Positions 4,702 to 45,314 of a stretch of 64,000 nt of DNA are shown one piece after another (the stretch's first letter is position 1; every line of letters begins with the position of its first letter). Location: contig CASDOR010000015.1 in NCBI GenBank assembly GCA_949282135.1, forward strand, positions 8,773 to 72,772, given 5' to 3'. The DNA is from an uncultured Christensenella sp. (GTDB lineage: Bacteria > Bacillota > Clostridia > Christensenellales > UBA1242). The position numbers were made by a program, and so were the translations under genes. The notes under the pieces are model-generated. The model did not search any database. It was not told the origin of the DNA and saw only the letters and a list, made by a program, of their open reading frames with translations.

Positions 4702-4836
4702 GGGGCGGGCTTTTTTGTAAAACCGAGTATGGTTTTACAAAAAGGGGCAAGGCTAGGGAGACTTCCCTCGCCTTGCCCCATGCTTTTGTTTTCTGAGCCT
4801 AAAAAGGCAAAGAAAACAAAAGCATAAGCCCGCCCC
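4702..4836. repeat. Four-way-junction (cloverleaf) element, copy 1
   Basis: Outer stem GGGGCGGGCT/AGCCCGCCCC enclosing three hairpins; truncated duplicate at ~4565-4595. Confidence 0.85.
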
Positions 4837-4837
4837 G

Positions 4838-5070
4838 TAATAAATTAACAAATGACCTTAGAACATAAATGTAAAAGACGTCTATCTTTTTAATGGTGTG
4901 GAGCTATAACAAATTAATAAATGACCTTAGAACATAAATGTAAAAGACGTCTATATATTTAATGGTGTGGAGCCTATAACAAATTAATAAATGACCTTAG
5001 AACATAAATGTAAAAGATGTCTATCTATTTAATGGTGTGGAGCTATAACAAATTAATAAATAACCTTAGG
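4838..5070. repeat. ~70-bp tandem repeat, ~3.3 copies
   Basis: AAATGACCTTAGAACATAAATGTAAAAGAYGTCTAT...GGTGTGGAGC repeated. Confidence 0.9.
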
Positions 5071-5127
5071 CAGAACTTAAATAGCAAAATAAGACATATT
5101 AATAAATGACCTTTGGACAAGAATAGC

Positions 5128-5161
5128 AAAAAAGACTTAAACTAACTATAAGTCTTTTTTT
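5128..5161 (-). terminator. Intrinsic terminator downstream of rarA
   Basis: AAAAAAGACTTA...TAAGTCTTTTTT inverted repeat. Confidence 0.7.
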
Positions 5162-5184
5162 GTCATAAGAAATGCTTTTAAGGG

Positions 5185-6474
5185 TTATTTGTCTTTTTTA
5201 AACATAAATTTTTTACGTTTTAGGTTCTTTTCTCGCCCATTCTCGCTTGGGGTGTAATAAATTCTATCTTTTAAAATCTTTGGAAGATATTCTTGAGCGA
5301 CATATCCTCCAAAGTCATGTGGGTACAAATATCCGCCTGTTTTATCATCATTAATAGAAGGATGATTTTTTAACCTATTTGGCACAACCGCATCTCTAGT
5401 TTTTTCCGCATCTAAAAGTGCTTTATCTTTTGCTATTAAAACTGAATTTGACTTGTCCGCCTCACACGCGTAAATTATTGCATGACTGAGAGTCAGTAAA
5501 CACTCCGGTTCGCCAAGCTTTTCGGCACTATACAAACTACAGCATGCAAGAAGGAGTGCATTACTGTCCGCCATACCTATGTCCTCGCTAGCATGAGCAA
5601 TAAGCCTGCGAGCTATAATTCTTGGGTCGCAACCAGCTTTTATAAGTCTTGCAAAGTAGTAGAGTGCCGCATCGGTGTCACTTCCACGAATGCTTTTACA
5701 AAACGCAGACAAAATGTCGTAATACATAGTCGTATCTGTACTAAGAGGAAGCTTACCAATGCTGTCATATGCTATTTCTTTTGTAATATGTATTTTTTTG
5801 TCTTTACCAAGATTTGTTGTTTTAACTGCAAGTTCAAGCCCATTAAGTGCCGACCTTATGTCTCCACCGCAGGCATATGCAAAATAGTCAAGCGCATCCT
5901 TATCTACCTCAACTGGCAAATTTCCAAGTCCGCGTTCGGTGTCTGCTACCGCTTTTGTTAAAGCCAAAATTACATCTTCTTTTTCAATCCCTTTAAACTC
6001 AAACACTCGGCAACGTGATACAATAGCACGAGTCATTGACGTGTACGGATTTTCTGTTGTCGAACCTATAAATATTATGTGCCCCTCCTCCATTGCCTGA
6101 AGCACAGAATCGCTTTGTGCCTTGCTCCACCTATGGCATTCGTCTAAAAAGAGATAAGTCTTTCTATTAAACAACTCAAAGTCCTTTTTTGCCTTGTCAA
6201 TAACCGCCTTTGCCTCTGCTACCCCACTTGATACTGCGTTAAGTTTAACAATTTCGCCATTTGAAAGGTTTGCAATAATGTGTGCAAGACTTGTTTTTCC
6301 TGTCCCAGGTGGACCATAAAAAATACAACTCCCAAGCACCCCTGCACGAATTGCTCTATCAAGAAGAGAGTCTTTGTGTACAATATGTTTTTGCCCTACG
6401 AACTCCTCAAGAGTCCTAGGTCTCATTCGTTCACTCAAAGGTCTGTTTTTCTCAAAATTTGAATAGTATTCCAT
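5185..6474 (-). CDS. rarA: Replication-associated recombination protein A (RarA/MgsA AAA+ ATPase)
   Basis: PLSERMRP, GPPGTGKT, LDECHR, STTENP, KSIRGSD, SEDIG, YLYPHDF motifs. Confidence 0.97.
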   Translation of the reverse strand: MEYYSNFEKNRPLSERMRPRTLEEFVGQKHIVHKDSLLDRAIRAGVLGSCIFYGPPGTGKTSLAHIIANLSNGEIVKLNAVSSGVAEAKAVIDKAKKDFELFNRKTYLFLDECHRWSKAQSDSVLQAMEEGHIIFIGSTTENPYTSMTRAIVSRCRVFEFKGIEKEDVILALTKAVADTERGLGNLPVEVDKDALDYFAYACGGDIRSALNGLELAVKTTNLGKDKKIHITKEIAYDSIGKLPLSTDTTMYYDILSAFCKSIRGSDTDAALYYFARLIKAGCDPRIIARRLIAHASEDIGMADSNALLLACCSLYSAEKLGEPECLLTLSHAIIYACEADKSNSVLIAKDKALLDAEKTRDAVVPNRLKNHPSINDDKTGGYLYPHDFGGYVAQEYLPKILKDRIYYTPSENGREKNLKRKKFMFKKDK

Positions 6475-6481
6475 GTTTCAT

Positions 6482-6510: not shown

Positions 6511-6616
6511 GTTTTGTAATAGTATAAAATCTAGCTAAGTTTTTACAAGGCTCAAATTTTGTAGAAAAGGTGAAAGACCAAATGAAAAACAAAGAGAGTT
6601 TACTAGTATCTTAAGA

Positions 6617-6716
6617 CCCCGTGAAAGCCTCTTTCACGGGGTAAGGCGAAAAAAGCGAATGTTAAAAGCTGGCAGTTTTGAGTATACTGCCAGTTGCTAA
6701 ATTCGCTTTTTTTCGC
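6617..6716. repeat. Structured double-hairpin element, type B copy 1
   Basis: CCCCGTGAAAG/CTTTCACGGGG hairpin, then GCGAAAAAAGCGAAT...ATTCGCTTTTTTTCGC long stem. Confidence 0.7.
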
Positions 6717-6717: not shown

Positions 6718-6814
6718 GGAGGGTGGGCATTTTTGTAAAACTCAAGTTTTACAAAAATTAGATGCTTAAAAGCATCTAGTTTTGTGCCTCCGTCACAAAA
6801 CTGCCCACCCCTCC
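6718..6814. repeat. Four-way-junction element, copy 2
   Basis: GGGTGGGCA/TGCCCACCC outer stem plus three hairpins. Confidence 0.85.
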
Positions 6815-6882: not shown

Positions 6883-6988
6883 TCCCCACAAAAGATGCCT
6901 TTTGTGGGGAGAGGCGGAAAAAACGAATTAAAGACAAAGGGGGTTTGCGAATAACAAACCCCCTGTCGCCATATTCGTTTTTTCCGCC
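6883..6988. repeat. Structured double-hairpin element, type B copy 2
   Basis: CCCCACAAAAG/CTTTTGTGGGG hairpin, then GGCGGAAAAAACGAAT...ATTCGTTTTTTCCGCC. Confidence 0.7.
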
Positions 6989-7789: not shown

Positions 7790-8292
7790 ACAAAATAAAA
7801 TAAGGAGTGTTATTCACACTCCTCTATTATACTCAAAGTGTTTGTAGGGGAAAATAAAACTAGCTCTATACTCCATTTTAGTTTCCGTTTTGGTTAGTTT
7901 CATACCTTACTCATATTTTGCGTTATTATTTTGCGGTCTACACACACAATAAAATAAGGAGTGTTATTCACACTCCTCTATTTTACTCAAAGTGTTTGTA
8001 GGGGAAAATAAAACTAGCTCTATACCCTATTCTAATTTTCGTTTTGATTAGTTTCTTCGCTTATTTTAATTTTGCGTTATTATTTTGCGGTCTACACACA
8101 CAATAAAATAAGGAGTGTTATTCACACTCCTCTATTTTACTCAAAGTGTTTGTAGGGGAAAATAAAGCTAGCTCTATACCCCTTTTTAGTTTCCGTTTTG
8201 GTGAGTTTCTTCCCTTACTCATGTTTTGCTTTATTATTTTACGCTCTACACACACAATAAAATAAGGAGTGTTATTCACACTCCTCTATTAT
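7790..8292. repeat. 154-bp tandem repeat (~3.3 units), each carrying a terminator-like hairpin AGGAGTG-ttattca-CACTCCT
   Basis: Hairpin starts at 7803, 7957, 8111, 8265; lies between convergent sigK and rnpB. Confidence 0.9.
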
Positions 8293-8294
8293 CT

Positions 8295-8877
8295 AAAGTG
8301 TAGACCGTAAGCCGGGTTCTGTTTTTGGTGGTCATCTATCTAGGTCTATTGTTGCCAATAGACTCAAGCGACACTTTTAAGAAATCTAGCGGACCGCTTT
8401 AAAACGATTTCTTTTAGTCTTGCTTCGGGTGGGGTTTACATGGCAATGACTATCACTAGCCACTCGGTGAGCTTTTACCTCGCCTTTCCACCTGAACAAA
8501 GGTTATAACCTGCCAAAGAAATAAAAAACTAAAGATAATTTAAATAATTTGTTAACTTTATCAAGTTTTAGCCCCAAAATTGTATTTCTACAACAACTGG
8601 AAAACCTCATAAAAAAGTAAAAAATAATGTTTTTAAATAAAAGGAGTCGATTCTAGTATTAAGTATAAATTCTACCAGAATAAGATATTTAATCTTCGAC
8701 AAATATCAAAAAATTGTTATAAAATGGGCAGTATAAAAAATAACCTTTGTTGTCTATTTCTGTTGCACTATCCTTAGAGTTGCCTCCACTGAAAGTTAAT
8801 CAGCACCCTGTCCTACGAAGCCCGGACTTTCCTCATACTAAGCCTCACACCTAGCATGCGACCACCCGTCTACCTTC
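8295..8877 (-). ncRNA. rnpB: RNase P RNA (type A-like) with enlarged P12
   Basis: Minus strand reads GAGGAAAGTCCGGGC...AGTGCAACAGAAA...GGTGGAAAGG...AAACCCC...GCAAG...ACAGAACCCGGCTTA; P1 GTAGAC/GTCTAC. Confidence 0.95.
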
Positions 8878-14258: not shown

Positions 14259-15758
14259 TTAATTTTCAACCTTAAATCTAAGTTGCAAATTCTCAATATG
14301 TAAATTTCCAGAATTTGTAAATATTTTAAAGCTAAATTCTTTTCCCGGTAAATTTATGCTTAACCTTTGAAGATTGTCTTTTGCGGGCACGTCTATTTCT
14401 TTACTTCTTTTGTCTGACGTAACAAGTATTTTTGCCGGATACTTAGACAATAAGTAAATGTCTTTAAGTATTTTATTTTTGTCCCTTGAATCTAGAGTTA
14501 TTACACCACTTTCCCAGCTAGAGCTTAAGTTTGTATCTACTATTTTACATTCATCGGTTAGTTGATATAAAAGCTTTTTATTTCTTAGCGCAACAATTAA
14601 TTTTGATAAAAACAAATCATTTATTGCTACCATTGAACACACATCTATACCTTTTATAATAGTGTAAGTGTTGTCCTCTATATTAAATTCAATAAGTGCA
14701 TTGTTTATAGCTTCTTCATTCTCTATGCTACCATCATCAATATTTGATTGTGTTACAAGCCCATTATCAAGTCCTACTTTTTCAAAATCAAGATGACAAG
14801 CAATGTACAATTTTTTGTTAAAAAAACAAATACTTGCATCAAGTTGCTCCCTGTCAAGCAAACTTGAAATATTTAGTTCTAGCTTTTTTATGTCTACCCC
14901 ATCAAGAGAATACAAACCATCCTCGCATAAAAAGTAAATTAAATCTCCGCACTTACACGCAGTATTTGCATAGATTTTTGAGCCTGAAGTATAAATATTT
15001 GTTGCAAAATATTCATCACTTGAGGAATATGCACTTATCTTTGATATGCCATAGTCCTCAAAAACATAAATACTATCTTTAAAACTTACAAGCTTTCTAA
15101 GACTTCCTTTATAATCATTAAGTTCAATACTACCAGCATCATCACTACTTATAACATTTTTCTTCCAATCAAGAGGATTTTTATTTGAACTATACCTTAT
15201 AATATTGTCTTTTGAGGCATCTATCGCAAAAAGTCTATCACCGTGTAGACAAATTGACCTAAAATATGGTGCGTCTTCCACCTCGTAAATTGGGTCATCA
15301 CAATACCAAACAACTAGAGGTCTATCTTCAAAAGCAAAACCAATAACACTGTCCTCTTCAACCGTAAAATTAATGGTTGTTGGGATTGAAGAATAAACCG
15401 TATTACTAAGGCTTGCAAACTCGCCAATATGTGCAAACTCAGCAGAAAAATATAGCTTTCCATCATTTCCAAGTGCTACAAGGAGATATTCCTGACAATT
15501 ATTTGGTATGCTATAGTAGGTATAGTGCCAAATCTTAACAAATGAAAAAGTTTGCTCAAACATTACGTATTCGGTTCTGTCTGTCATAAGTGCTGGTAAA
15601 GTTAAAACTTCAAAGCCCTTTCCACTACTTAAAACTCCGTGTTTTACTTGAGTATTAAAACTTGCCCTACAATTCTTGTCCACAACATATTTACTTCTAT
15701 CTAAATCCATTTTTGACTCAAAAGACTCTAAGTTTATTCTTTCTTCCTTGTATTCCAT
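14259..15758 (-). CDS. Putative podophage-type tail nozzle / DNA-stabilisation protein (beta-propeller)
   Basis: 499 aa beta-rich (HGDRLF, IRYS..NPLDW, SSWESG); follows the adaptor in the head cluster; call is from size, position and motif feel. Confidence 0.6.
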   Translation of the reverse strand: MEYKEERINLESFESKMDLDRSKYVVDKNCRASFNTQVKHGVLSSGKGFEVLTLPALMTDRTEYVMFEQTFSFVKIWHYTYYSIPNNCQEYLLVALGNDGKLYFSAEFAHIGEFASLSNTVYSSIPTTINFTVEEDSVIGFAFEDRPLVVWYCDDPIYEVEDAPYFRSICLHGDRLFAIDASKDNIIRYSSNKNPLDWKKNVISSDDAGSIELNDYKGSLRKLVSFKDSIYVFEDYGISKISAYSSSDEYFATNIYTSGSKIYANTACKCGDLIYFLCEDGLYSLDGVDIKKLELNISSLLDREQLDASICFFNKKLYIACHLDFEKVGLDNGLVTQSNIDDGSIENEEAINNALIEFNIEDNTYTIIKGIDVCSMVAINDLFLSKLIVALRNKKLLYQLTDECKIVDTNLSSSWESGVITLDSRDKNKILKDIYLLSKYPAKILVTSDKRSKEIDVPAKDNLQRLSINLPGKEFSFKIFTNSGNLHIENLQLRFKVEN

Positions 15759-15765
15759 ATTATTC

Positions 15766-16350
15766 TTAAATCCACCTTTTAGTCTTAATTGTCGTACCTT
15801 GTTGCATAGTATTTGATAGTCCGTCCGTGTAATACCCTGCTAAACGTTCAGCATCATCATAAATCTCACATAAATTTAGATACTCACTAGCAACTCCAAG
15901 TGCAATTATTCTTGTGCCCACGTTGTAAAAAGCTTTTATTTCGTCATTTAACTCTAGAGTTGGTGGAATTATAGTGTAGTCAATAAACACTTTTTTGCCA
16001 TGGCTATTAAAAATTATCGTTTCCCCAACCTCAGCAAAAAGAATGTCCTCTAAATTTTCATCATACACCCTTAAAACCTTATTTATCTTATTTCCAGTAA
16101 GCGACTCAAGCTTTATACTTGTGTGGCCCTTAGAACCCAATAACACATAAGTCTCTTTTATCTGAAATTTTGTTAGTGCAAGTTCGTTTATAGTGTTGTT
16201 AAGTGCTAGCATTAATGTATCAAACTTTTTTTTGGTGTCCTCCGATGCGTTTAAAGTTTGAAGGTCAGCATTTTCCTCAAAATACATAGACAAATCATCA
16301 TAAATGTTTAGATAGTTTGAAGCAACTTTTAATATTTCAACAACTTTCAT
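15766..16350 (-). CDS. Putative head-tail adaptor (tail tubular A / P22 gp4-like position)
   Basis: 194 aa helix-beta-helix layout (LNNTINELA...IIALGVASEYL); position after capsid. Confidence 0.55.
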   Translation of the reverse strand: MKVVEILKVASNYLNIYDDLSMYFEENADLQTLNASEDTKKKFDTLMLALNNTINELALTKFQIKETYVLLGSKGHTSIKLESLTGNKINKVLRVYDENLEDILFAEVGETIIFNSHGKKVFIDYTIIPPTLELNDEIKAFYNVGTRIIALGVASEYLNLCEIYDDAERLAGYYTDGLSNTMQQGTTIKTKRWI

Positions 16351-16402
16351 CTTTTTTCTCCTTTTAAGTAAAAATCTTTTAGAGCATATTATTAAACGAC
16401 CT

Positions 16403-16768
16403 TTAAATCCAACGCGTTTGATTTATGTTATCAAAACTTACGTCTTTCCCCTTTTTGTCTGCATAATCTAAATAGTCATTTAGTGTGGTTTTTGCGTGCA
16501 TAGCTATAGTTTCTTCTTCTTTTTGCCTTAATTTACTGTTATTTTCTTTGATAAATGAAAAAATTTTTTTTGCATTTCTAATATGCGTTTTGTATGCTTT
16601 ATCAATGGCACTTTTATCTAGTCTTTTGCCGATCATAAAAGAAAAAACGCTCCCACAAAATACCTCATAAACTTTTTTTGTTTTATCAAAATAAATTTGA
16701 TAATTTTTATCTACTTTCTTTATTCTATTTGTTATGTTATACAAGTCATGTTTTATTAAAGTTTTCAT
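16403..16768 (-). CDS. Hypothetical protein of the phage-like module
   Basis: 121 aa, AGGAG SD, between capsid and adaptor. Confidence 0.75.
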   Translation of the reverse strand: MKTLIKHDLYNITNRIKKVDKNYQIYFDKTKKVYEVFCGSVFSFMIGKRLDKSAIDKAYKTHIRNAKKIFSFIKENNSKLRQKEEETIAMHAKTTLNDYLDYADKKGKDVSFDNINQTRWI

Positions 16769-16828
16769 ATGTTAATTCTCCTAGAAAATAAAATTAAAAA
16801 GACAAATTCAAACTATAGTTATGAGACC

Positions 16829-16943
16829 GCGTGCGGGAAGTAAAATTTTAAAACACAAGGTTTTAAAATTTTCTTTGCCCATTTGCACGCAAATGGGCAA
16901 ACTTAGACTTTTTTCTCAAAAAAAGTCTAAACTTCCCGCACGC
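16829..16943. repeat. Four-way-junction element, copy 3
   Basis: GCGTGCGGGAAGT/ACTTCCCGCACGC outer stem plus three hairpins. Confidence 0.85.
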
Positions 16944-17029
16944 AACTAAAACTAAAGTCTCAAAACCTATTAAAATTTCTTGTTTAGACACTCTTAAAAT
17001 TATAACTAAAAGATTTTTTTACACATTTA

Positions 17030-18211
17030 TTAATTTGTCGTCTTAATGTTTGAAATCTTGCCTTGTGCACCAGGTCTGTCACATACAAGTTCTGCGTACT
17101 TTACAAGTGTTGCAGAATATGTAGGAGTTGTGCTTGATGGAATTAAAATACTTCCATTTTCAGTTTCAAGCCATTCCCAATCACAAAGTTGATGAAGAAT
17201 AAAGTCCTTAGTGTTAAGTAGATACATTGTTCCGTCCTCAACAAATCTCTCATAAACAACAGGAATACCTGCATAAGTCATAGTTTTATAACCGCCCTGA
17301 AGAGTAGACATATCAATGTTACGCCTATTTTCTGATAAATAACTTTGATAAGCAGTCCTAACATCCCCAGACACTGCAATAAAGTCGACCTGTTCCCCAG
17401 TCTCTTCCTCAATAGAGTTAAGTGCTGTTTGAATCATGCTATCACTAATGCTTGCCCCAGTAGCATTCGCGTTTACATATGGATAAAGCCAAGGATACGC
17501 ACTTCTATCTACGCCATAAAGCATTTCTGCCCCAGTACTTGTATCAAAAATTCTCTTTATACCTGTAATTTCATTGTCCTTTGAACCGCTTGCATAAAGC
17601 TTATTTCCATCGGCAATTGTAACTTCACTATCAAATACAACCTTTTTGTTTTGCCTGTCAACATAAGTGATAGTAGCCCCTGTTTTTGTAAAGCTTGAAC
17701 CATTATATACGTCAACCTTCATCCCTTCAACCAAGTTTTTAACTGAATCATATGTAATAATAGTCTCGTCCTCTTCGCCTTCTGTCACCTTTGCGGTTGC
17801 AAGAAGGCCTGTCCCATCCCCATAAAGCATACGACCAAGATTAAACGCACTTGACTTAATAAGACTCTCCATTTCGTCATTAAGCAAATTTACAAAAGCC
17901 CCAGTGTTTGATGCACTTGCCCTAATTGCCTTATCTGATAAAGCAATAGTACCATATAGGTTTTTAAGCCCTGTTTTGAATTGCACAAATTTGTGACCAC
18001 TTGCAGAAGGCAAGTTCCCATCTTCCGTACCAGAAGCTATACCCCCATTCAAGCCATAAGGTGCTAGTTTAATTATTTCTTTACCATATACGTCTTTGCT
18101 ACTTTGCTTAATTTGTGAAAGTAATGCGTTTGCCTTAATGTTAAGTTGTTCACTTAAAACTCCAAGATATACACTCTTTAGTGCCTCTTGTGCTGAATTT
18201 AATGTTATCAT
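17030..18211 (-). CDS. Phage major capsid protein (HK97 fold likely)
   Basis: 393 aa; EDGNLP, LYGTIALSDKAI, RMLYGDGTG, YAGIPVV..F...GTMYLLN, L..YAEL..DRP.AQG patterns; follows portal and scaffold. Confidence 0.85.
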   Translation of the reverse strand: MITLNSAQEALKSVYLGVLSEQLNIKANALLSQIKQSSKDVYGKEIIKLAPYGLNGGIASGTEDGNLPSASGHKFVQFKTGLKNLYGTIALSDKAIRASASNTGAFVNLLNDEMESLIKSSAFNLGRMLYGDGTGLLATAKVTEGEEDETIITYDSVKNLVEGMKVDVYNGSSFTKTGATITYVDRQNKKVVFDSEVTIADGNKLYASGSKDNEITGIKRIFDTSTGAEMLYGVDRSAYPWLYPYVNANATGASISDSMIQTALNSIEEETGEQVDFIAVSGDVRTAYQSYLSENRRNIDMSTLQGGYKTMTYAGIPVVYERFVEDGTMYLLNTKDFILHQLCDWEWLETENGSILIPSSTTPTYSATLVKYAELVCDRPGAQGKISNIKTTN

Positions 18212-18250
18212 TTCTTTTTCTCCCCTTTTTTTGTGTTTTCTCGTGCCAGC

Positions 18251-18712
18251 TTAATTTTTTCTTTTGTCAAACATATCTTTAACTATACTTTCCGCCTCCT
18301 CAAGTGTATGCGGTTTACTTATAGGACTTATCACACTTCCGCCACCCCTATCACTACTGATAAGCTTTGGCGAAGCAGGCAAAATTAACTCGTCAAAATA
18401 CCTTGCAATAAGTTTGTCTTTAAGCTCTTTGTTGTTTAAGATATATTCTTGAAGTAACCTTTCTCTTTCCGCGCTCGAAAGAGTCTCTTCTTGATTTGAA
18501 AGTAGTTTGGGTGAGTTTGCCTCATTTTCCTCGTACTCTTTCTTGAGAGCACTATACGCCTGACACTTTTTCGTATACTCACTCTCTAAATTGTTGTAGG
18601 CAGTAAAAAGACTATCTGCGTCTTTAAACTTGCCATATTTGGAGCTAGTGTCAAGAGGTTTAGCATTTTCCTCTATTGAATTTTCTACTAGTTGTTCCAA
18701 ATTTTCATCCAT
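18251..18712 (-). CDS. Putative capsid scaffolding protein
   Basis: YGKFKDADSL..AYNNLE.E.TK motif typical of podophage scaffolds; between portal and capsid. Confidence 0.7.
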   Translation of the reverse strand: MDENLEQLVENSIEENAKPLDTSSKYGKFKDADSLFTAYNNLESEYTKKCQAYSALKKEYEENEANSPKLLSNQEETLSSAERERLLQEYILNNKELKDKLIARYFDELILPASPKLISSDRGGGSVISPISKPHTLEEAESIVKDMFDKRKN

Positions 18713-18894
18713 TTTTGTGTTCTCCTTTTTTCTTTTTTAAAATTTAAATTAATATTGCTTTTTTAAAACCATTAAAATATTTTTGTTGTAATCTTTTATT
18801 TTATAATTACTACCCACTTCTATAATTGGTAGTCTTTAGTTGTTTTAATAAAATTTATAAAGTTTTTTTAAGTTTTTGTGCTTTTTTAAAACCC

Positions 18895-20472
18895 TTACGA
18901 CATTAGTCCAACACCAAAAAGTTCTAGTATCTTCCTTTTAACTTCTTTGTCTATCTCACCATTTTCATTTTTTAATATGTTAGACGCTAGAAGCTGTAAA
19001 ACATGTTCTCTTTTTGAAGATAAACTTTCATATAACGTACTATCTGACATAAACATTATGTCGTCAGTCGTTAGATCCGTATTTTTAAAGTACACCAAAC
19101 TCTTTTTATCATCCGTAGTTCTAAGTAGTCTTGGAGTCACCGCAAATTCCTTATAAAGTCTAAGTATCATTTTGGCAATCTCTTTTACCGCTCTATTTAC
19201 TTCGTCTGCAGTTGTGTTAATTCTAGAAGTATCTTGCTCAATAAGAAGTTCGAGTGCGACCCCACTCATGTTTGTCGAATTAAACCTAGTCGACAAAAGG
19301 TTAGTTACCCCACTTATATCACTAAACTCAGTAAGTAAGCTCTCTTCTTCCTCTTTAAACGCACTAGGTAGTCCCTCTTCATCAAGAAATTGAGGTTTAG
19401 TTGCCCCTTGCTTGTAAACAATGACTTTTCCTGGTTCTAGCCCATCTTGTGATAAGCTTTCTATGTCGACACTTCCGTCCTCAACAGTTAACACTCCGAG
19501 ACTTAGCCTATTCATGTACTCGTGCTTCCTGTTTTTAACTGCGTTATACGCCCTTTGAATAGGAATTAATTTGTCAATAACACTCTGCCCATAAAAACAA
19601 CCCGGCACTCTTAAAGACACTTGTTTTACAAATGGAAAGCCACGTTTGTTGTCTTGTAAGTTTATATAAGGAAGTTCTCCTAAATATAGTAGTTTATCTT
19701 GACAAACAACAATAAGCCTACCATTTGGATATTCGACACTTTCACTTTCGTACTTTTCAATGACAATAGCATGGTCTTTTCTTTTGACACCTTCAATTCC
19801 ACTTCCAGAAAAGTCAATCACGTCTATATCTTCACCCTTGACATTTACTCCCCACTTGTTTCTGATTTCCCTTGTGCTGTATGCCTTTGCGTGAATTATA
19901 CTTTCACAATCTCTAATTTCCTCATTTGCAACACTATCTACGTAAATCTCAAAAGGTGACACCGCATCAATCTCAATTTCACCTTCGTATACTATTTTTC
20001 CGTCCTTGTTATATATCTTCTTGCCTTTTGTTCCATTCCAAATTACTTTGTAAAAACTAGTCCCTGTTATCTCACTCCAAGTTGTTGCTCTTGAAATTAT
20101 TTCACTTAAATTTAATTTCTCATAGCACGAATATAAAATGTCTTGCGATAGTCTTGCAATCTTTTCATCCTCCTCACTTGACGAAGTAGGAATAACGTTC
20201 ATCTCCGGTTTTAAAGTGTTGAGTTTAGCAAGCCTAGTCTCAATTATTGGTGCAATGTGATTAAAAACCTTTCTCTCTTGCCAAAAATATGTCTTATTCG
20301 TAAGCTCAATGTCACTTAAAGAATTAATCCCAACAAATTGGTTACCCAGTAAAAAGTTGTTGTTTAGTCTCCACCTCGCTTCAAAAGGTTTTCTTTCCCT
20401 TTGGCGAATTAAAAAATCTTCTTGTACACTTCTCACTAAGTCCTCAATATACTCGTCCTTTTTCTTTTTCAT
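18895..20472 (-). CDS. Phage portal protein (P22-like)
   Basis: 525 aa; FNHIAPIIE, VSPFEIYVD, FYGQSVID.LIPIQ..YN, ISGV, SGVAL motifs. Confidence 0.85.
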   Translation of the reverse strand: MKKKKDEYIEDLVRSVQEDFLIRQRERKPFEARWRLNNNFLLGNQFVGINSLSDIELTNKTYFWQERKVFNHIAPIIETRLAKLNTLKPEMNVIPTSSSEEDEKIARLSQDILYSCYEKLNLSEIISRATTWSEITGTSFYKVIWNGTKGKKIYNKDGKIVYEGEIEIDAVSPFEIYVDSVANEEIRDCESIIHAKAYSTREIRNKWGVNVKGEDIDVIDFSGSGIEGVKRKDHAIVIEKYESESVEYPNGRLIVVCQDKLLYLGELPYINLQDNKRGFPFVKQVSLRVPGCFYGQSVIDKLIPIQRAYNAVKNRKHEYMNRLSLGVLTVEDGSVDIESLSQDGLEPGKVIVYKQGATKPQFLDEEGLPSAFKEEEESLLTEFSDISGVTNLLSTRFNSTNMSGVALELLIEQDTSRINTTADEVNRAVKEIAKMILRLYKEFAVTPRLLRTTDDKKSLVYFKNTDLTTDDIMFMSDSTLYESLSSKREHVLQLLASNILKNENGEIDKEVKRKILELFGVGLMS

Positions 20473-21814: not shown

Positions 21815-21843
21815 TTTCTTGCCTCCATTTTCAAATGCAAAAT

Positions 21844-29003: not shown

Positions 29004-29336
29004 CTACATTACCTCCAGTGCCTCATTTAAAACTTGCACAACTAAGTCTTTACTCGCATTGCTATTAAGCAAAGTTATGCTTTTTTCGATTTTACCTCTA
29101 AGCTCGTCAAATTTCTTGAGGAGTTTAAGTTTCTCTTCATACTCTTCAAGTATAGCAATCGTTCGCTTAATCAAATCATTTATTGCTTGACGCGAAGAAT
29201 TATACAATATCGCCAGCTCGCTAATAGAAATGTTTTGATAAACAAAGCCTGACAAGACAAGCCTTTGCTTTTCCGTTAAAAGTGGCGAATAAAAATCAAA
29301 CAATAAACTTACCCTAAGACTTTCTTCTATTCTCAT
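29004..29336 (-). CDS. ylxM: YlxM (UPF0122) HTH protein
   Basis: LFDFYSPLLTEKQ, SRQAIND.IKR, LEEYEEKL; directly upstream of ffh. Confidence 0.92.
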   Translation of the reverse strand: MRIEESLRVSLLFDFYSPLLTEKQRLVLSGFVYQNISISELAILYNSSRQAINDLIKRTIAILEEYEEKLKLLKKFDELRGKIEKSITLLNSNASKDLVVQVLNEALEVM

Positions 29337-29356
29337 ATCTTCCTATTACAACAATA

Positions 29357-29411
29357 TGTAAAGTAAATTTACTTTACAAACTAATTATATGTATTTTTCT
29401 TTCCCTGTCAA
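29357..29411 (-). promoter_or_regulatory. ylxM-ffh promoter with palindromic operator-like site
   Basis: TTGACA-16bp-TATAAT (29411-29384); perfect 22-bp palindrome TGTAAAGTAAATTTACTTTACA at 29357-29378. Confidence 0.75.
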
Positions 29412-29655
29412 GAACTTTTATTAAAATATTTATATTAAATTTAATTGGTAGATAAAATATGATTAATTTATAAATATTACATATAATAATAGACTTAAAT
29501 TAAATATGAAAAATAAAACCTATTTTTAGTAAATATGTAAAATTTGGCAAGACGCATAACCTTTGATATAGGAATAAAACTAATAAGGCAATATGTATAA
29601 AAAACTTGATAAATACCTAAACTCATGTAGATAGATAAAAATAATATAATAATAC

Positions 29656-29773
29656 GGGGCGGGCGGTTTTTTGTAAAACTTAAGTTTTACAAAAAAGTGA
29701 TGCTTTGTTACCACAAAGCATCACCTTTTGTGCTTTTTTTAAAAAGAAAAAAGCACAAAACTCCGCCCGCCCC
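29656..29773. repeat. Four-way-junction element, copy 5
   Basis: GGGGCGGGCGG/CCGCCCGCCCC outer stem plus three hairpins. Confidence 0.85.
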
Positions 29774-29920
29774 ACTTTTCTTCTCCTACCCCTTTTTTCT
29801 TCCTCCTCTTTTTTTCTCTCCCCTACACCTGTTTTAAATTCTCACACAAAAATAGGTCATAATTAATGTTAAATTTTTCTCTTCTTTACAATAACAAAAT
29901 CCGCCTTATAAACCCACCTC

Positions 29921-30550: not shown

Positions 30551-31987
30551 CTATTCAAAACTTAAATGTCTACGTTTATTTTTTAAAATCATACTTTCTT
30601 TGTATTTTTCAAGCCTTGTTTTTTTTCGCTCATGCGCGGCAGGTCTTGTCATAAGATAATACCTAAGTTCATCCAAACTATGGTCATCTTTTTTTACTGG
30701 ATTATCTCCCCCTCCCCAAAAATATGATTTAATTTCTCTTATCATGTTTACACAGTTCTTAAAAATAAAAAGCCTACTTACCCCGTCTGCATTTTTAAGA
30801 TAACTCTTCACAACCGCTATTCCAGAAAAGAGGTCTTTATTGACTTTAGTGTTTACATTTATGCCCCTTTCATTAAATAACTCTGCCACACTCTTTATTC
30901 CATTTAAAGTCCTTTGCCCTGCCGCGCTATCTATTAGTGCTGAATACTTATTAAATCCGTCAACTTTCCAATTGAGCTCGCTACAAATCTCTTTTATTTT
31001 GTTTGCATGATAATCAATATCTCTATTCTTTTCGTAGTGCTCGCGAATAACATAAACATTTCCATCAAAGTCAACCGCGTACCAGTGACAAGCTAAAGGA
31101 TTATTAAGCCCCGGGTCAATTGATATGTTGTCATACCACTCTTTTGGTACATTAAAAGGCTCAATTACATTTACATTTTCGTCAAACTCACTATACACTA
31201 GCCCACTTGACAAAACAAATCTCCCATACTTTCTACTTTCGAGTTCTTCACTTGACATGCTCTCACTAAAAAACTTAATTTCCTTTCTATCTAAAAACGG
31301 ATTGTCCTCCCAGGTCATTGTCTCATACCAAACTTCACTGCTGTTTTTGTCGTTTAAATAAATCTCATTATATACCCAGCTAAGCCCCTTAAGTGGTGTC
31401 ATAGTTCCAAAAATGTCCCCCTGTTTATCTAAAACTCTCATGCGACACTCCATGTATATTTCTTCGTCAGGCTCTTCGTCAAACCACACATAATCAAGAC
31501 TTGCCCCTTGAAATTTTTCTCTTCCCTGGTCACAACTCTTAAAACCAATTGTCGACACCCCACCAAACACATTTTTTATTTTTATGTAGTCTATAACTCC
31601 GCTTTCTGGGTAGTCTTTCTTCCCCTGTTGCATAACAACCTCAACAATCCACTCTTTTTTAAGGTAATGTAAAATCTTTTTTTGTGCGACATCTCTTTGA
31701 ACTTGCCTTGATAAACTTACAACCCACCCTATCGTGTCTCGTTTATTTTTTCTAAATGGATGACAACCCCTTGCCATATATACAGTCTCAACCGCTCCGC
31801 ACTCAGTCTTTCCCGTTCTATTTCCGCCAAACACCCAGCGGTTACGCTTTTTGCACTTGTGAAATTCAAGTTGTTTTAAATGTTTTATTTCTCCTCTATT
31901 ATAATTAAATAAGGCATCTTCCTCTTTTCTCTTTTTAAGCTCTAGGTAAAGTTTTTGAAGTCGGTCAACAAGCTTAAATTTTTCCAT
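30551..31987 (-). CDS. Phage terminase large subunit
   Basis: Walker A GGNRTGKT, Walker B VWFDEEP, motif C TMTP, nuclease IDPG and DDHSLDELRY. Confidence 0.93.
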   Translation of the reverse strand: MEKFKLVDRLQKLYLELKKRKEEDALFNYNRGEIKHLKQLEFHKCKKRNRWVFGGNRTGKTECGAVETVYMARGCHPFRKNKRDTIGWVVSLSRQVQRDVAQKKILHYLKKEWIVEVVMQQGKKDYPESGVIDYIKIKNVFGGVSTIGFKSCDQGREKFQGASLDYVWFDEEPDEEIYMECRMRVLDKQGDIFGTMTPLKGLSWVYNEIYLNDKNSSEVWYETMTWEDNPFLDRKEIKFFSESMSSEELESRKYGRFVLSSGLVYSEFDENVNVIEPFNVPKEWYDNISIDPGLNNPLACHWYAVDFDGNVYVIREHYEKNRDIDYHANKIKEICSELNWKVDGFNKYSALIDSAAGQRTLNGIKSVAELFNERGINVNTKVNKDLFSGIAVVKSYLKNADGVSRLFIFKNCVNMIREIKSYFWGGGDNPVKKDDHSLDELRYYLMTRPAAHERKKTRLEKYKESMILKNKRRHLSFE

Positions 31988-34598: not shown

Positions 34599-34733
34599 GC
34601 GGGCTCCCCTCGTTGTAAAATTTCAATTTTACAACGAGGGCGGAGGTGCGAAGGGGGGGGAGGCACAAGCCTCCCTCCCCCCCTTCGCCCGCTCCGCCTT
34701 TTTGTTGCAAACCTGCAACAAAAAGGGACCCGC
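34599..34733. repeat. Four-way-junction element, copy 6 (closest to copy 4)
   Basis: GCGGG/CCCGC outer stem; CTCGTTGTAAAAT/ATTTTACAACGAG; long G/C hairpin; CTTTTTGTTGCA/TGCAACAAAAAG. Confidence 0.85.
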
Positions 34734-36719: not shown

Positions 36720-37110
36720 CTTTATTTTTTTAAAACAAAAGTCAAAAAATTTAAAAACCCTTAAAAATATAAAAAAATATCATAATATAAATTAAAAAAT
36801 TCAAAAAACCTAAAAAAACATAAAAAATGCTATCATAAAAGTCAAAAAAATTCAAAAAACTTTTAAGAATCATAAAAATTCTATCATAATAGCTCAAAAA
36901 CCCATTAAAATCATAAAAAAAACATTATAATAGGTCAAAAAACCTAAAAATTCATAAAAAATGCTATCATAATAGTCAAAAAAATTCAAAAAACTTTTAA
37001 GAATCATAAAAATCCTATCATAATAGCTCAAAAACCCATTAAAAACATAAAAATCCTATCATAACAGGTCAAAAAATCCATTAAAATCATAAAAAACCTA
37101 TCATAAACTG
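36720..37110. repeat. A-rich degenerate ~35-45-bp tandem repeats (CTATCATAATAG...CATAAAAA)
   Basis: Directly visible. Confidence 0.7.
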
Positions 37111-42883: not shown

Positions 42884-42914
42884 AAAAGGAGTAGTCGTTA
42901 TTGACTACTCCTTT
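42884..42914. terminator. Bidirectional terminator
   Basis: AAAGGAGTAGTC-gttatt-GACTACTCCTTT. Confidence 0.75.
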
Positions 42915-43046
42915 GGGTTATAGTTCGTATGTGTTTTGTTAAAACTGACACACTGCGTTATACAGTTTGACAATCCGTTTAACTTTGAAAGTAATTCAAA
43001 AAGATTTTCGCCGTTATCAGCTTTTATTTGACCACTCTTTTGAATT

Positions 43047-43436
43047 TTACATTTTACTTAAAATGTTTTTCTTTTCTTTTTCATATTCTTCTTTTGATAT
43101 AACGCCTCTATTTTGCAAGTCGTTCAAATATGTTAATTGTTCTGTCGTGCTTTGTTTTGGGCTTTCATTTTCTAAGTGACTATTTATTTTTTCTAACTCA
43201 CAAACTTTCAAAATATGAACTATCAAAAATGAAATAAAGGTGCTAAAACTAAGTAAAACAGTGGCTGATGCAATATAAAAATATATTGCATCTTGTTCGT
43301 GGTTCACGCTAAGAATAATGCCACCACATAACAAAAATACGCTAACAAATAATGTTAACGCAAACAAAATGATAATTGTTGTTTCAACAAACTTTCGTGA
43401 AATTATGCGATTGCTAGGTTGCCCATTCTTACTCAT
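43047..43436 (-). CDS. Two-TM SHOCT-domain protein
   Basis: L..L.DL...GVISKEEYEKEKK.IL C-terminus. Confidence 0.85.
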   Translation of the reverse strand: MSKNGQPSNRIISRKFVETTIIILFALTLFVSVFLLCGGIILSVNHEQDAIYFYIASATVLLSFSTFISFLIVHILKVCELEKINSHLENESPKQSTTEQLTYLNDLQNRGVISKEEYEKEKKNILSKM

Positions 43437-43636
43437 TTTTTACCTCCGCGACTTAAAATTTCTGTTTTTTTCTCATTGTATTCTTGTTCAGTTATTAAGC
43501 CCTTTTCTCTAAGTTCGTTTAATTCTGCAAGCGGGTTTTCGCCTTTTGATGATTTCTTTGTCCACACCTTTGCTGCAATTAAAACGATTGCTGTGACCAA
43601 AACTGCCACACCGAACGCGAAAAATGCGTATATCAT
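43433..43636 (-). CDS. Single-TM SHOCT-domain protein
   Basis: L.EL.EKGLITEQEYNEKK.EIL; GGAGG SD. Confidence 0.85.
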   Translation of the reverse strand: MIYAFFAFGVAVLVTAIVLIAAKVWTKKSSKGENPLAELNELREKGLITEQEYNEKKTEILSRGGKK

Positions 43637-43749
43637 TTTTACCTCCTATTTCCATTAAAACTTAAAAAAATATATTAGTCCAATTGGAGTGCACCCCAAA
43701 ACTAGCTTAGTATTTTGTAAGACCTTTTGTGTCCATATTTTTAATTAGA

Positions 43750-45168
43750 TTATGCGTTATCCTTTGAAACAACAATATCACTTTCTTGTATGGTGTAAGC
43801 ATCAAGTTGTTCTAAACTTTCTTCCTCTCCTCTTTCAACAACAAACGCAACACTATCACCTACTCTTAATCTCACCGCAAATTCGTTTAAGTCGTACGAA
43901 AGTTTAAAATCAACTTGCCACGAACTTCCGTCTAAACGCGTCACCACCGCGCCAACTATTTTATCTTGAACTTTTACACCCATTTTATCTGCCACACTAC
44001 CGCTTGTAACCTCTGTTACCTCAGCATCAACCGACAGTGTAGTAATCCCTGTAGTCTCGTCATAGTCACTGCTTGAATTAGTTGTTCTATCTAGCATCAC
44101 ACCAAATACAACTTTCCTAACGCCAACACTTTCTCCGTTTCCGCTCTCATAACTTTCAATTATATTTTTGCTAACCGCCTCGGCTAAGTTTGAATAAATT
44201 GCATTCCCCAGACCTTCGTAGCCTACTGCCATGTATTTTGCGTTTGCAATTCCAACGAGTTCTCCTGACATGTTGAAAACACCACCGCCGCTGTTACCTT
44301 TGTTAATTGATGCATCAAGCCTAAACCCTATTGTTACTCTTGTCTCACCTGCGACATTTACGGTAGTAATTTCATTTACTTTACTTATAACTCCCTGCGT
44401 TATTGAAAGCAAATTGCCCTTTGCATTTCCAATAGCAACCACTTCTTCACCAAGATGAATTTCACTCGAATCTCCAAAGGTCGCAGGAATTATGTCTCTG
44501 TTTTCTATCTTTTCAAATTCTTCACCACTCACCTTTAACACTGCAAGGTCATACTCGGCACTGCCACCAATGTAACTAGCTTTAAAACCGTCATTATAAA
44601 GGTTTTGCGTCTTATCCTCGTCCACTGTCAAGTTTTCATATCCATATGTATAACAATAAATTTCATTCCCAATTTCATAAACATAATTGTTATTTACTAC
44701 TTTTTGAGTCACAACAACGTGATAATTGGTCAGAATATAAGCATAATTCTCTTCTTTATTTAACTCAATAACTACACCACTTCCGCAAGAAAAATAGCCA
44801 ACTTGGTCTGTCGGAATAAAGATTGATACAACAGAGTTAATACATTTATTAGCCACTTCCTCTACAGTCGTGTCAGACGAAGCTAAGAAGTAATCTTTTA
44901 GAAACTCCTCATACCCTTCCTTGGTATTTTCATATAAACCAAATTCTACAGCCTTTTCAAAAAGACTTTCAGCAGTAAGCTCTCCATCTTCACCATCCAC
45001 CCCATTACTGCCCTCTAAACTTTCAAGCCACTCCTCTTCAGTACCAATAAAGCCATGTTCAACTGCAATATCATATGCACTTTTACCTGGTGCGTCAGTA
45101 CAAGCAAATAGAAATCCCCCACAAAGACATATAATTAAACTCATTATAATTGCTTTAAATTTTTTCAT
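43750..45168 (-). CDS. HtrA/S1C serine protease lipoprotein with PDZ domain
   Basis: Lipobox LFAC; TNYH, DLAVL, GNSGG triad; start MKKFK at 45168. Confidence 0.9.
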   Translation of the reverse strand: MKKFKAIIMSLIICLCGGFLFACTDAPGKSAYDIAVEHGFIGTEEEWLESLEGSNGVDGEDGELTAESLFEKAVEFGLYENTKEGYEEFLKDYFLASSDTTVEEVANKCINSVVSIFIPTDQVGYFSCGSGVVIELNKEENYAYILTNYHVVVTQKVVNNNYVYEIGNEIYCYTYGYENLTVDEDKTQNLYNDGFKASYIGGSAEYDLAVLKVSGEEFEKIENRDIIPATFGDSSEIHLGEEVVAIGNAKGNLLSITQGVISKVNEITTVNVAGETRVTIGFRLDASINKGNSGGGVFNMSGELVGIANAKYMAVGYEGLGNAIYSNLAEAVSKNIIESYESGNGESVGVRKVVFGVMLDRTTNSSSDYDETTGITTLSVDAEVTEVTSGSVADKMGVKVQDKIVGAVVTRLDGSSWQVDFKLSYDLNEFAVRLRVGDSVAFVVERGEEESLEQLDAYTIQESDIVVSKDNA

Positions 45169-45223
45169 ATTCCCTTTGTCCTTTTTCTCTTGTTTGTTAG
45201 TCACTACTCCTGCTAAACTAGAC

Positions 45224-45314
45224 GGGCAGGGAAGCAAAATTTTTATTTCCATAAAAATTTTGAAAAAACTCCGTTTTTTTTAAAAGCTCTAAAGAGAGCT
45301 TTTCTTCCCTGCCC
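45224..45314. repeat. Four-way-junction element, copy 7 (compact)
   Basis: GGGCAGGGAAG/CTTCCCTGCCC outer stem plus three hairpins. Confidence 0.8.

Follow-up and report, generated by a model that had tools for sequence, protein, structure and literature searches.

Seven GC-rich, foldable elements are dispersed through AT-rich spacers of the window, by which we mean the whole 64,000-nucleotide stretch of DNA from an uncultured Christensenella sp. that was analyzed here. Are they structured RNAs, mobile DNA or sites of another kind? All seven were found where the original prediction had placed them (Table 1), and in each a GC-rich closing stem encloses three abutting hairpins (H1 to H3). The elements range from 85 to 145 bp, mostly lie shortly after gene 3' ends and have arms of 7-22 bp, much longer than tRNA arms. 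Folded as RNA, the seven reached z-scores of -8.6 to -14.3 on the plus strand and -7.1 to -14.2 on the minus strand, and DNA parameters returned the same fold (z -9.3 to -14.6); in each case 0/200 shuffles folded equally well. An RNALfold scan with a multiloop filter added no further element to the original list for the window, which is thus complete; of the seven it passed over only el6, because of internal bulges. The H1-type hairpin is leftmost on the plus strand in all seven copies, as predicted, but not as a single sequence: el7, and loosely el3, represents a second family with the H1 AAAATTTTTAT, compared with TTGTAAAA in the other window copies. Across H1 and H3, el6 is ~89% identical to el4.

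Table 1 Cloverleaf elements and neighboring features, in window coordinates.
Feature	Position	Strand	Description
Truncated A1 left half	4545-4595	+	Has just the closing 5' arm, H1 5' arm and loop; direct reading and pattern match
el1	4702-4836	+	A1 cloverleaf (a subfamily of family A); closing stem GGGGCGGGC, H1 TTTTTGTAAAAC, GC-rich H2, long H3
69-bp tandem repeat, 3.3 copies	4838-5069	.	Begins 2 nt from el1 closing stem; TRF
Hairpin of a separate repeated family (CCCCAYG...)	6616-6642	.	Left of el2; second copy 6883-6910; the pair is C15 15388-15414 and 15655-15682 (offset 8772); related copies on C4, C7 and C13
el2	6718-6814	+	Family A cloverleaf; lies where rarA and a sigma-factor gene diverge
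el3	16829-16943	+	Cloverleaf closed by a B-like stem, GCGTGCGGGAAGT; 87 nt past the major head gene
el4	20920-21039	+	Family A cloverleaf; junction of portal gene and relocated rplS end
rplS...ffh-ylxM block	21442-29436	-	Here between el4 and el5; adjoins ftsY-smc in the sister species G018
el5	29656-29773	+	Family A cloverleaf; other junction of the relocated ylxM-rplS block; tandem repeat abutting
Short tandem repeat	29775-29824		Abuts el5
el6	34599-34733	+	Family A cloverleaf; H2 long, imperfect, G-rich; 247 nt downstream of SSB-like gene
el7	45224-45314	+	Family B cloverleaf; spacer between recA and HtrA-like protease gene; closing stem GGGCAGGGAAG, H1 AAAATTTTTAT, H2 AAAAAACTCCGTTTTTT

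A structural scan of the window's genome (G000; 1.25 Mb, 97.5% complete, with the window on contig C15) found 24 four-way junctions with three hairpins and one five-way junction with four; el6 was added by eye. The filtered matches number 31, of which 24 have three hairpins and six are a weaker two-hairpin form. C15 alone yields nine matches (eight with three hairpins), against 0 and 0 in two shuffles of this contig that kept composition within 40-nt blocks. At least two sequence families, A and B, are present in G000. Members of a family share conserved modules, H1 and H2 among them; the outer closing stems are largely copy-specific, and the part shared in G000 is the inner 5-6 bp only. Most copies adjoin housekeeping genes, and the window elements are spaced by ~6 kb with housekeeping operons between them. 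Four paralogs, el1 among them, each lie 320-380 nt upstream of a BspA-like gene; these four A copies are explained by duplication of the module upstream of the BspA gene, not by transposition.

Pairing in the elements is strict. Watson-Crick pairs make up ~99% of paired positions, and G-U pairs are equally rare on the forward (12/1216) and reverse (15/1218) strands. The predicted compensatory change is borne out by a CM-fitted alignment of family B, with double changes at 22 of 23 pairs and in 162 cells, compared with five one-sided cells. In this alignment, which is fitted to the model and includes seven rows that are reverse-strand matches of the same loci, 92.4% of cells are paired versus 68.4% in shuffles, and the observed value was reached in 0/500. 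The stems of A1 paralogs show no double and nearly no single changes despite 19-38% loop divergence. Compared with its paralog C11_17168, el1 is identical at 57/57 pairs and differs at 4/21 unpaired positions; compared with C15_72950, the figures are 56/57 and 8/21. Identical stems with divergent loops, together with an H1 loop that varies from 4 to 8 nt across copies, point to a hairpin and away from an operator bound as duplex. Overall, these data support a four-way-junction motif that is non-random, conserved in structure and divergent in sequence, and the elements are best read as defined by their architecture, a GC-rich clamp around a near-perfect three-hairpin four-way junction, and not by sequence.

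Strand-symmetric and nearly G-U-free pairing fits single-stranded DNA or a cruciform better than a one-strand non-coding RNA. The reading we favor, at about an even chance, is that the elements are intergenic DNA repeats that are structured, propagate and form a lineage specific to this genus; they would act as folded single-stranded DNA or cruciform. The orientation of the elements is polar genome-wide, as had been proposed: on the strand that opposes the leading/gene strand, H1 is the first hairpin in 17 of 20 clearly typed copies. The proposed replichore-polarized signal holds as far as the polarity is concerned, but replication and transcription are inseparable as its cause, because gene strand and GC skew are concordant around almost every element; within ±10 kb of the elements, 82-100% of coding sequence is on the majority strand.

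The position of the elements after genes raises an alternative that we consider unlikely, namely that they act in cis as RNA at the 3' ends of operons, where the reverse complement of the 'forward' form would be transcribed and serve as an exonuclease-resistant cap, partial terminator or insulator. Most copies are indeed closer to the upstream stop codon than to the start of the next gene, for example priA is followed by a copy at 38 nt, pgk, tpiA and a DUF1848 gene at 112-128 nt, and the head gene, where el3 is retained in two species, at 87 nt. In addition, A-type H2 is a GC hairpin between an A-run and a T-run, terminator-like on either strand (the inner H2 hairpins of el2, el4 and el5 were flagged as such), and the closest published analogue, bcr1, is described as transcribed and carrying compensatory changes (PMC3184786). 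However, an RNA under selection on one strand would normally tolerate G-U pairs, which stand at ~1% and are as rare on one strand as on the other, and the five one-sided against 162 double changes speak against it as well. The loops are the least conserved part, a T-run follows the closing stem in some copies only, and el2 sits between divergent genes. Both rarA and rplS have a simple terminator of their own, that of rplS at 21398-21422, with el1 and el4 further on, so that the elements are unlikely to terminate these genes. Comparison with Rfam, as suggested originally, assigned the elements to no family: at gathering thresholds of release 15 the sole match in the window is RNase P, and the contigs with other copies gave nothing except tmRNA and tRNAs. 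At E<=5 the elements obtain sub-threshold microRNA-type hairpin matches of 23-32 bits against cut-offs of 60-100. Identity as tRNA or tmRNA was rejected, with ARAGORN finding 0 genes in the window and the element arms reaching 7-22 bp.

Several results count against the favored reading of propagating DNA repeats. The 39 window ORFs scanned contain no transposase, in agreement with the original prediction. Its suggestion of a REP/HUH-mobilized element found no support: a Y1/HUH transposase (RAYT, PF01797) is matched in 7 of 28 genomes of the genus and in none of the cloverleaf-bearing G000, G018, G009 and G012. A REP/REPIN-RAYT system was rejected on the lack of a RAYT in G000, the three-hairpin junctions and the absence of a shared GTAG or CGTC tag in flanks and ends of 26 copies. 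IS200/IS605-derived palindromes were likewise rejected, as G000 has no TnpA and, in G013 and G023, the inverted repeats that surround the Y1 genes of the IS200-like elements, e.g., AACCCCCAGA/TCTGGGGGTT, are unlike the arms of the cloverleaves found there. The element flanks show neither a target-site duplication nor a conserved tag at the ends, and no autonomous relative was found among the Y1 and tyrosine recombinase families searched. The copy-specific closing stems are also unlike transposase-bound inverted repeats.

Present in several species of a single genus of gut bacteria, the elements are an unusual variant of structured dispersed repeats already known in other bacteria. The repeat bcr1 of the Bacillus cereus group is described as MITE-like, ~155 bp long, intergenic and dispersed, with compensatory changes that keep a 'cruciform-like' structure and a genomic distribution not conserved between relatives (PMC3184786). 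The likeness is one of kind: both are Firmicute intergenic dispersed repeats with compensatory changes. In contrast to bcr1, for which this source reports 5-bp direct repeats, none were seen at the present elements, which are further set apart by a strict junction of three hairpins, GC clamps that vary from copy to copy and the near absence of G-U pairs. REP/BIME and REPIN sequences are likewise short GC-rich extragenic palindromes in spacers, persisting vertically as populations and with orientation effects tied to single-stranded DNA (PMC3116915, PMC3733652, PMC6006769). A REP, however, consists of one hairpin of 20-40 bp, bears a conserved tetranucleotide tag and is accompanied by a RAYT gene, whereas the present elements are four-way junctions of 85-145 bp with no terminal tag and no Y1/HUH in the four genomes named above. 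Like MITEs they are small, non-coding, multi-copy and intergenic; they differ in that no parent insertion sequence and no clear target duplication were found and terminal pairing varies by copy in G000. Mitochondrial GC clusters spread through very AT-rich spacers. These clusters and double-hairpin elements of yeast and other fungi resemble ours as GC-rich palindromic islands in AT-rich genomes (PMC4478555). They are, however, organellar and have other structures, and no descent relation is implied.

The distribution in related species suggests spread and turnover. The A-type H1 palindrome occurs nine times in G000, once in G018, once in G002 and in none of the other 38 genomes searched. CM R1 matches number 16 in G000 and 13 in G018, with single weak ones in six of 26 other genomes of the genus; four of these weak matches are cloverleaves of different sequence. 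Beyond G000 and G018, cloverleaves unrelated in sequence occur in four species of the genus; there are eight in 81 kb of G013:C23 and two in G009:C3, and the three-hairpin form is dominant in other species too. The el3 ortholog in G018 (L034 8363-8482) has 43 of 50 pairs unchanged and two double changes, and a B-like element of G018 occupies the same spacer as el7. Family B in G018 is partly a ~165-nt repeat with GGAAGT/ACTTCC inverted motifs. This unit is MITE-like in its sharp ends, near-identical copies, one tandem pair and an occupied/empty site pair, the last being a single insertion polymorphism (n=1) in which the unit is present in G018 and the corresponding site in G000 contig C14 is empty. 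Only G000 and G018 have a cloverleaf in the spacer that follows the head gene; where this spacer could be read in other species, 21 in number, it contains simple hairpins, tandem repeats or nothing. The best reading is that each species has its own sequence families and that the elements spread and turn over within genomes, mobility of the G000 copies being inferred.

A further alternative is that a mutational process makes the palindromes. In one case an inverted copy of a tRNA-Ser 3' end, split by a two-hairpin insert, forms a cloverleaf, and in G041 the arms homologous to those of el3 H2 and H3 are nested in one hairpin and not set side by side as two. Tandem repeats lie within 50 nt of 7/26 elements, compared with 4.5% for random intervals in large spacers. 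Together with perfect pairing on both strands and copy-specific outer closing stems, this would suit palindromes that stalled forks leave behind through template switching or inverted duplication and that are tolerated without mobility or function. We nevertheless find it improbable that the elements are such by-products. A random process should yield more two-hairpin forms than are seen when 24 of 31 filtered matches have three hairpins, the H1 and H2 modules are conserved within families, and GC-rich stems are maintained although the genome has 32% GC. The near-unchanged A1 stems moreover look like constraint, not arm-to-arm conversion.

Copies of type A are found at all three junctions of the ylxM-rplS relocation: the 8-kb block is bounded by the co-oriented el4 and el5, and the ancestral ftsY locus has a third A copy (C11). 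A block excised between direct sites and then re-integrated would be expected to leave this arrangement. In other strains, contigs of runs X1, X5 and X8 keep el4 but have its flanks replaced exactly outside the element, beyond 20908 and 21048, and in G009 a 3.4-kb stretch lies between two inverted cloverleaf copies. If the elements were sites of folded-DNA recombination that mark movable chromosome segments, like integron attC or single-stranded attP, a tyrosine recombinase or junction-resolving enzyme would act on them; G000 has four Phage_integrase-family matches, on contigs other than the window's. As in attC, a folded single-strand site, structure is conserved with variable sequence and length, and the elements are co-oriented and placed after genes. 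An attC site, however, is a single imperfect hairpin with extrahelical bases, in dense cassette arrays with an adjacent IntI gene, features not seen here. An integron attC identity was rejected on the ~6 kb spacing with housekeeping operons between and the perfect four-way junction. The wider recombination-site reading is very improbable too: only one rearrangement is involved, the ftsY donor site also gained an HTH-BspA module, indicating a complex history, sequence differs strongly among el4, el5 and the C11 copy, no rearrangement against G018 is seen beside most elements, and no recombinase is linked to them.

A packaging or other cis site of a conserved phage-like, possibly gene-transfer-agent-like, head gene cluster is the least credible reading: the portal, major head and terminase genes adjoining el3, el4 and el5 were confirmed and 25 of 28 genomes of the cloverleaf-bearing genus retain the head gene, but beyond this proximity nothing supports the idea, most copies sit beside housekeeping genes far from the head cluster, no cloverleaf was found in 105 kb around head genes and pattern matches of other species, and element families differ between species whose head proteins are 70-89% identical.

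For the favored lineage of propagating DNA repeats, the active form would be folded single-stranded DNA or an extruded cruciform, arising on a strand exposed in replication or repair and recognized by a hypothetical structure-specific host enzyme. Such recognition of folded DNA would explain strict Watson-Crick pairing on both strands, conserved stems with drifting loops and the polar orientation. Replication also seems to be perturbed locally by the stable fold; this would account for the tandem repeats next to elements and for the copies that mark rearrangement junctions. Stem conservation in paralogs, el3 retention in G018 and an architecture persisting across species fit a host function equally well. 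We further consider it possible, though quite unlikely, that the elements are structure-defined DNA sites acting as Holliday-junction mimics, as folded single-stranded DNA or cruciform, which a putative junction-recognizing host enzyme reads. This would drive both the spread of elements and cassette-like relocation as for ylxM-rplS, with vertical inheritance across the genus and arms turning over by strictly Watson-Crick double changes.

All seven elements in the window (el1 to el7, numbered by position) fold as the original prediction described, with one closing stem around three abutting hairpins, H1, H2 and H3, and 0–3 unpaired bases at the junction. Folded as RNA they gave z-scores of −8.6 to −14.3 on the plus strand and −7.1 to −14.2 on the minus strand, and with DNA parameters −9.3 to −14.6; in each case 0 of 200 shuffles folded as well. 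Known RNAs do not explain their identity. At gathering thresholds Rfam matched only the RNase P RNA in the window, at E ≤ 5 the elements received only weak microRNA-type hairpin noise, and ARAGORN detected no tRNA or tmRNA in the window. Membership in a catalogued Rfam family, one of the checks proposed with the prediction, can therefore be set aside. The RNase P RNA (class A, 232 bits) measures 587 nt, and a 154-bp tandem repeat of 3.3 copies abuts its 3' end; an inserted cloverleaf was rejected as the source of its length, the extra ~225 nt being an AT-rich insertion in one stem.

We scanned the whole assembly (G000; 1.25 Mb, 32% GC, 29 contigs, 97.5% complete) using RNALfold followed by a multiloop filter requiring a closing stem of ≥5 bp, branches of ≥6 bp, ≤8 unpaired junction bases and an energy of ≤ −0.33 kcal/mol per nt. 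The filter retained 31 loci, 24 with three hairpins, one with four and six with two. With the identical pipeline the real contig C15, of which the window covers 8773–72772, gave nine hits, compared with none in either of two shuffles that kept composition within 40-nt blocks. El6 escaped the filter owing to bulges in its H2. This genome-wide scan shows that the predicted list is complete for the window but is only a sample of about 26 elements.

Two sequence families, A and B, stand out among these cloverleaves. Family A comprises el1, el2, el4, el5, el6 and five more copies; here the closing stem resembles GGGGCGGGC, H1 is TTTTTGTAAAAC, H2 is GC-rich and variable, and H3 begins TTTTGT. Family B comprises el7, ten more copies and, loosely, el3; its closing stem ends CGGAAG, H1 is AAAATTTTTAT, H2 is AAAAAAACTNCGTTTTTTT and H3 is variable and GC-rich. 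Four A copies (el1 and those at C15 72950, C11 17168 and C26 53993; subfamily A1) are paralogs within a larger duplicated module located 320–380 nt upstream of BspA-like leucine-rich-repeat genes. The BspA-type surface proteins, 585 to 2145 aa long, share a near-identical N-terminus as well as this upstream module. An "empty target hairpin" model was rejected, as none of 74 GC-rich hairpins outside the elements was an uninterrupted long GC hairpin with GGAAG or GGGCGGGC.

Other structured features accompany the cloverleaves in the genome. Also repeated is a third hairpin family, (G)GGTCCCCAYGCAAA...TTTGCRTGGGG, frequently in tandem units of ~105–150 nt; two of its copies flank el2. Starting 440 nt past the tmRNA gene, and upstream of a DUF6291 gene, is a five-way junction of 170 nt in which the closing stem encloses four hairpins (−110 kcal/mol); it may lie at the border of an integrated element. 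On contig C7 an element is built from the 3' end of a tRNA-Ser gene: behind the gene comes an inverted copy of this end, interrupted by an insert of two hairpins. The downstream part recurs as a direct repeat 860 nt further on, and the two copies bracket an isochorismatase-like ORF. A CRISPR array has a period of ~66 nt and ~14 repeats, whose palindromic core is CTCACCCC(A/G)TGTGGGGTGAG.

Locations of the cloverleaf elements and associated features.
Feature	Sequence	Positions
el1	window	4702-4836
el2	window	6718-6814
el3	window	16829-16943
el4	window	20920-21039
el5	window	29656-29773
el6	window	34599-34733
el7	window	45224-45314
RNase P RNA	window (minus strand)	8291-8877
154-bp tandem repeat	window	7790-8301
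Third hairpin family	window	6616-6642, 6883-6910
Third hairpin family	G000 C4	4524-4598, 7251-7276
Third hairpin family	G000 C7	71697-71871
Third hairpin family	G000 C13	33142-33421
Five-way junction	G000 C4	4195-4364
tRNA-Ser with inverted copy	G000 C7	37-182
Direct repeat of downstream part	G000 C7	945-1033
CRISPR array	G000 C21	11295-12173
BspA-type genes	window	978-4379, 57359-63796
BspA-type genes	G000 C11	18164-19921
BspA-type genes	G000 C26	49851-53630
ylxM...rplS block	window	21442-29436
ftsY locus	G000 C11	16951-20193
Phage-type head module	window	14259-20472, 30551-31987
Tandem-repeat spacers (others exist)	window	26535-26763, 36737-37107, 45589-45876, 47125-47345, 53247-53587, 54643-54976
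Inverted cloverleaf pair	G009 C3	79602-79682, 83081-83164

Pairing within the elements is strict whichever strand is read: over 26 elements, G-U accounts for 12 of 1216 pairs in the forward direction and for 15 of 1218 in the reverse. Family alignments with MAFFT misaligned the variable hairpins and closing arms, and we therefore used a junction-anchored tabulation, circular by construction and hence descriptive only, together with an alignment of 33 matches to a covariance model built from 11 B copies. In this alignment, which is fitted to the model, consists of related sequences and includes seven rows that are reverse-strand hits of the same loci, 92.4% of cells pair compared with 68.4% in shuffles, double changes occur at 22 of 23 pairs (162 cells versus 5 one-sided G-U cells) and the covariation score is 0.514, compared with 0.134 in shuffles and 0.04–0.16 when partners were slid; 0 of 500 shuffles reached any observed value. 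The compensatory change predicted between copies is thus borne out for family B in the model-fitted alignment. Close paralogs have drifting loops, frozen stems and no double changes in any comparison: el1 and the copy at C11 17168 share 57/57 stem pairs and differ at 4/21 unpaired positions, and for C15 72950 the values are 56/57 and 8/21. Judged from these sequences, the frozen stems speak for constraint on the stems rather than conversion between arms, which as the keeper of perfect stems is left unsupported by the A1 paralogs. The H1 loop varies from 4 to 8 nt, which is tolerable for a hairpin but not for a duplex operator.

All elements are found in large AT-rich spacers of 261–1206 nt. 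Their neighbors are mostly housekeeping genes (rarA, recA, SSB-like, rplS, ylxM, priA, recR, ftsY, dnaJ, pgk, tpiA, tgt, nrdD and others), with major head, portal and terminase genes as phage-type neighbors. Between co-directional genes the element is usually nearer the upstream stop codon. The simple terminators of rplS and rarA themselves sit between the gene and el4 or el1, respectively, and the inner H2 hairpins of el2, el4 and el5 are terminator-like, the flagged strand varying by element. Defining forward as H1 first and judging the leading strand by GC skew, we found that 17 of 20 copies with a clear type are forward on the other strand (19/24 with four uncertain copies added; 14/17 with the four A1 paralogs counted once, two-sided binomial about 0.013). 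The polar orientation noticed in the window therefore extends genome-wide, but its proposed link to the replichore does not stand on its own, because genes and skew point to the same strand around nearly all elements, making replication and transcription inseparable as causes.

Two of the elements mark the edges of a relocated operon. In the sister species G018, whose genes are about 76–85% identical to those of G000, the order is smc-ftsY-ylxM-ffh-rpsP-rimM-trmD-rplS, as is usual in Firmicutes, and the terminase, portal and head genes are contiguous. In G000 the conserved ylxM-ffh-rpsP-rimM-trmD-rplS block has moved from the side of ftsY into the head-gene cluster, where it lies between the portal gene and a terminase-side ORF with el4 and el5 at its edges; the ftsY locus now holds tandem repeats, an A cloverleaf, an HTH gene and a BspA-like gene. 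Contigs from three sequencing runs (X1, X5 and X8) likewise join el4 to rplS, and that of X5 also ties the portal gene to el4. In these contigs el4 is intact (three differences in 141 nt in X5), with the flanks beyond 20908 and 21048 deleted or replaced. The head module encodes a major head protein (phrog_14242, E 9e-53), a portal and a large terminase. As the head gene occurs in 25 of 28 genus genomes at 70–89% protein identity, sequence conservation points to a particle that is inherited vertically and possibly domesticated (gene-transfer-agent-like), rather than to a prophage acquired recently.

G018 retains an ortholog of el3 in the same place, in which 43 of 50 pairs are unchanged, two are double changes, one is G-U and four are broken in the alignment. 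The spacers corresponding to those of el7 and of the copy at C6 27251 also hold B-like elements. Most B-like copies in G018 are a near-identical ~165-nt unit with sharp ends, present as a tandem pair at one locus. Of the empty sites and target duplications suggested as a check, we found one occupied/empty pair, a G018 copy at a position where G000 has, on C14, an uninterrupted site shortly before a terminator hairpin, but without clear target duplication.

Among other relatives the architecture is found with different sequences. The A-type H1 palindrome occurs nine times in G000, once in G018 as a full A cloverleaf and once, outside a cloverleaf, in G002, and is absent from the other 38 genomes searched; B-type H1 occurs ten times in G000 and seven times in G018. 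R1, a covariance model of the cloverleaves, has 16 matches in G000 and 13 in G018; six of the other 26 genus genomes have one weak match each, and four of these matches (G023, G013, G012 and G009) fold as cloverleaves with quite different arms. A structural scan of 251 kb from five species, a sample biased because each contig was chosen for one weak R1 hit, detected three-hairpin elements in G013 (eight in 81 kb of C23, a family of its own), G009 (two clear ones and a doubtful hit inside coding sequence in 109 kb of C3), G012 (one) and G023 (one) and none in 33 kb of G010; it gave none in a further 105 kb, taken from other loci in 24 species. Thus the architecture is common to several species of the genus and the sequences are species-specific. 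The two related cloverleaves of G009 are mutually inverted and bracket 3.4 kb beside a tRNA gene, as in an invertible or composite segment. In 21 other species whose sequence is readable at this point, the head gene is followed by simple hairpins, by tandem repeats or by no spacer, and in G041 arms homologous to H2 and H3 of el3 make a nested hairpin instead. Searched with one genome per species, the A-type H1 palindrome gave at least 119 loci, none of which among the matches listed passed the cloverleaf filter; in three Congzhengia MAGs the stem motif of this search belongs to a plain terminator, and the B core had no match in the metagenome-contig scan. One uncultured Clostridia MAG outside the set of relatives has a small, multi-copy four-way element (L112, L153 and L156; 7-bp closing stem, hairpins of 4, 12 and 7 bp); its middle hairpin is similar to A-type H1.

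Seven of 26 elements have a tandem-repeat array (period ≥12) within 50 nt, in most cases 0–3 nt from the closing stem, compared with 4.5% of random 100-nt intervals in spacers ≥250 nt. The repeat units beside paralogs differ (69, 56 and 22 bp). Such repeats are abundant in the genome generally: 92 of 289 spacers ≥250 nt hold at least 40 nt of them, which is unusual for a 1.25-Mb genome.

Mobilization by a REP/HUH system, one origin proposed for the elements, is not supported, since no Y1/HUH transposase was found in G000 or in the cloverleaf-bearing G018, G009 and G012. Seven of 28 genus genomes encode such enzymes; in G013 and G023 the hairpins next to the Y1 genes do not resemble the arms of the cloverleaves. 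The four Phage_integrase-family matches in G000 are on other contigs. A DNA-level structured repeat that propagates and decays within the genus fits better than a one-strand ncRNA, because pairing is strictly Watson-Crick and strand-symmetric, stems are conserved with free loops, families are species-specific, an occupied/empty site pair exists, tandem repeats abut the elements and copies lie at rearrangement junctions. Against such a propagating repeat stand the lack of a transposase, target duplication or fixed termini, the persistence of the architecture across species and the constraint on stems; on these grounds the elements may instead have a host role, either as a 3' structure in RNA or as a site of recombination or replication.

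Structured dispersed repeats usually consist of one hairpin, are defined by their sequence and are linked to a known transposase. A keyword search of the open-access literature returned no description of a bacterial cloverleaf or four-way-junction repeat, and one may be in print elsewhere. Among published repeats, the closest analogue that could be confirmed is bcr1 of the Bacillus cereus group, which a review (PMC3184786) describes as a transcribed ~155-bp repeat in which compensatory changes keep a cruciform-like structure.

In practice, assemblies break at these elements, and screens for GC-rich spacers can mistake them for ncRNA genes. The conserved feature here is a near-perfect four-way junction, formed by unrelated sequences in at least six species of one small-genome gut-bacterial genus and without a recognizable partner enzyme. 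If the junction is indeed the recognized form, these repeats would be a tractable case for how bacterial chromosomes use or tolerate folded DNA, what keeps palindromes perfect and how such sites promote the expansion of nearby repeats and the relocation of operons.
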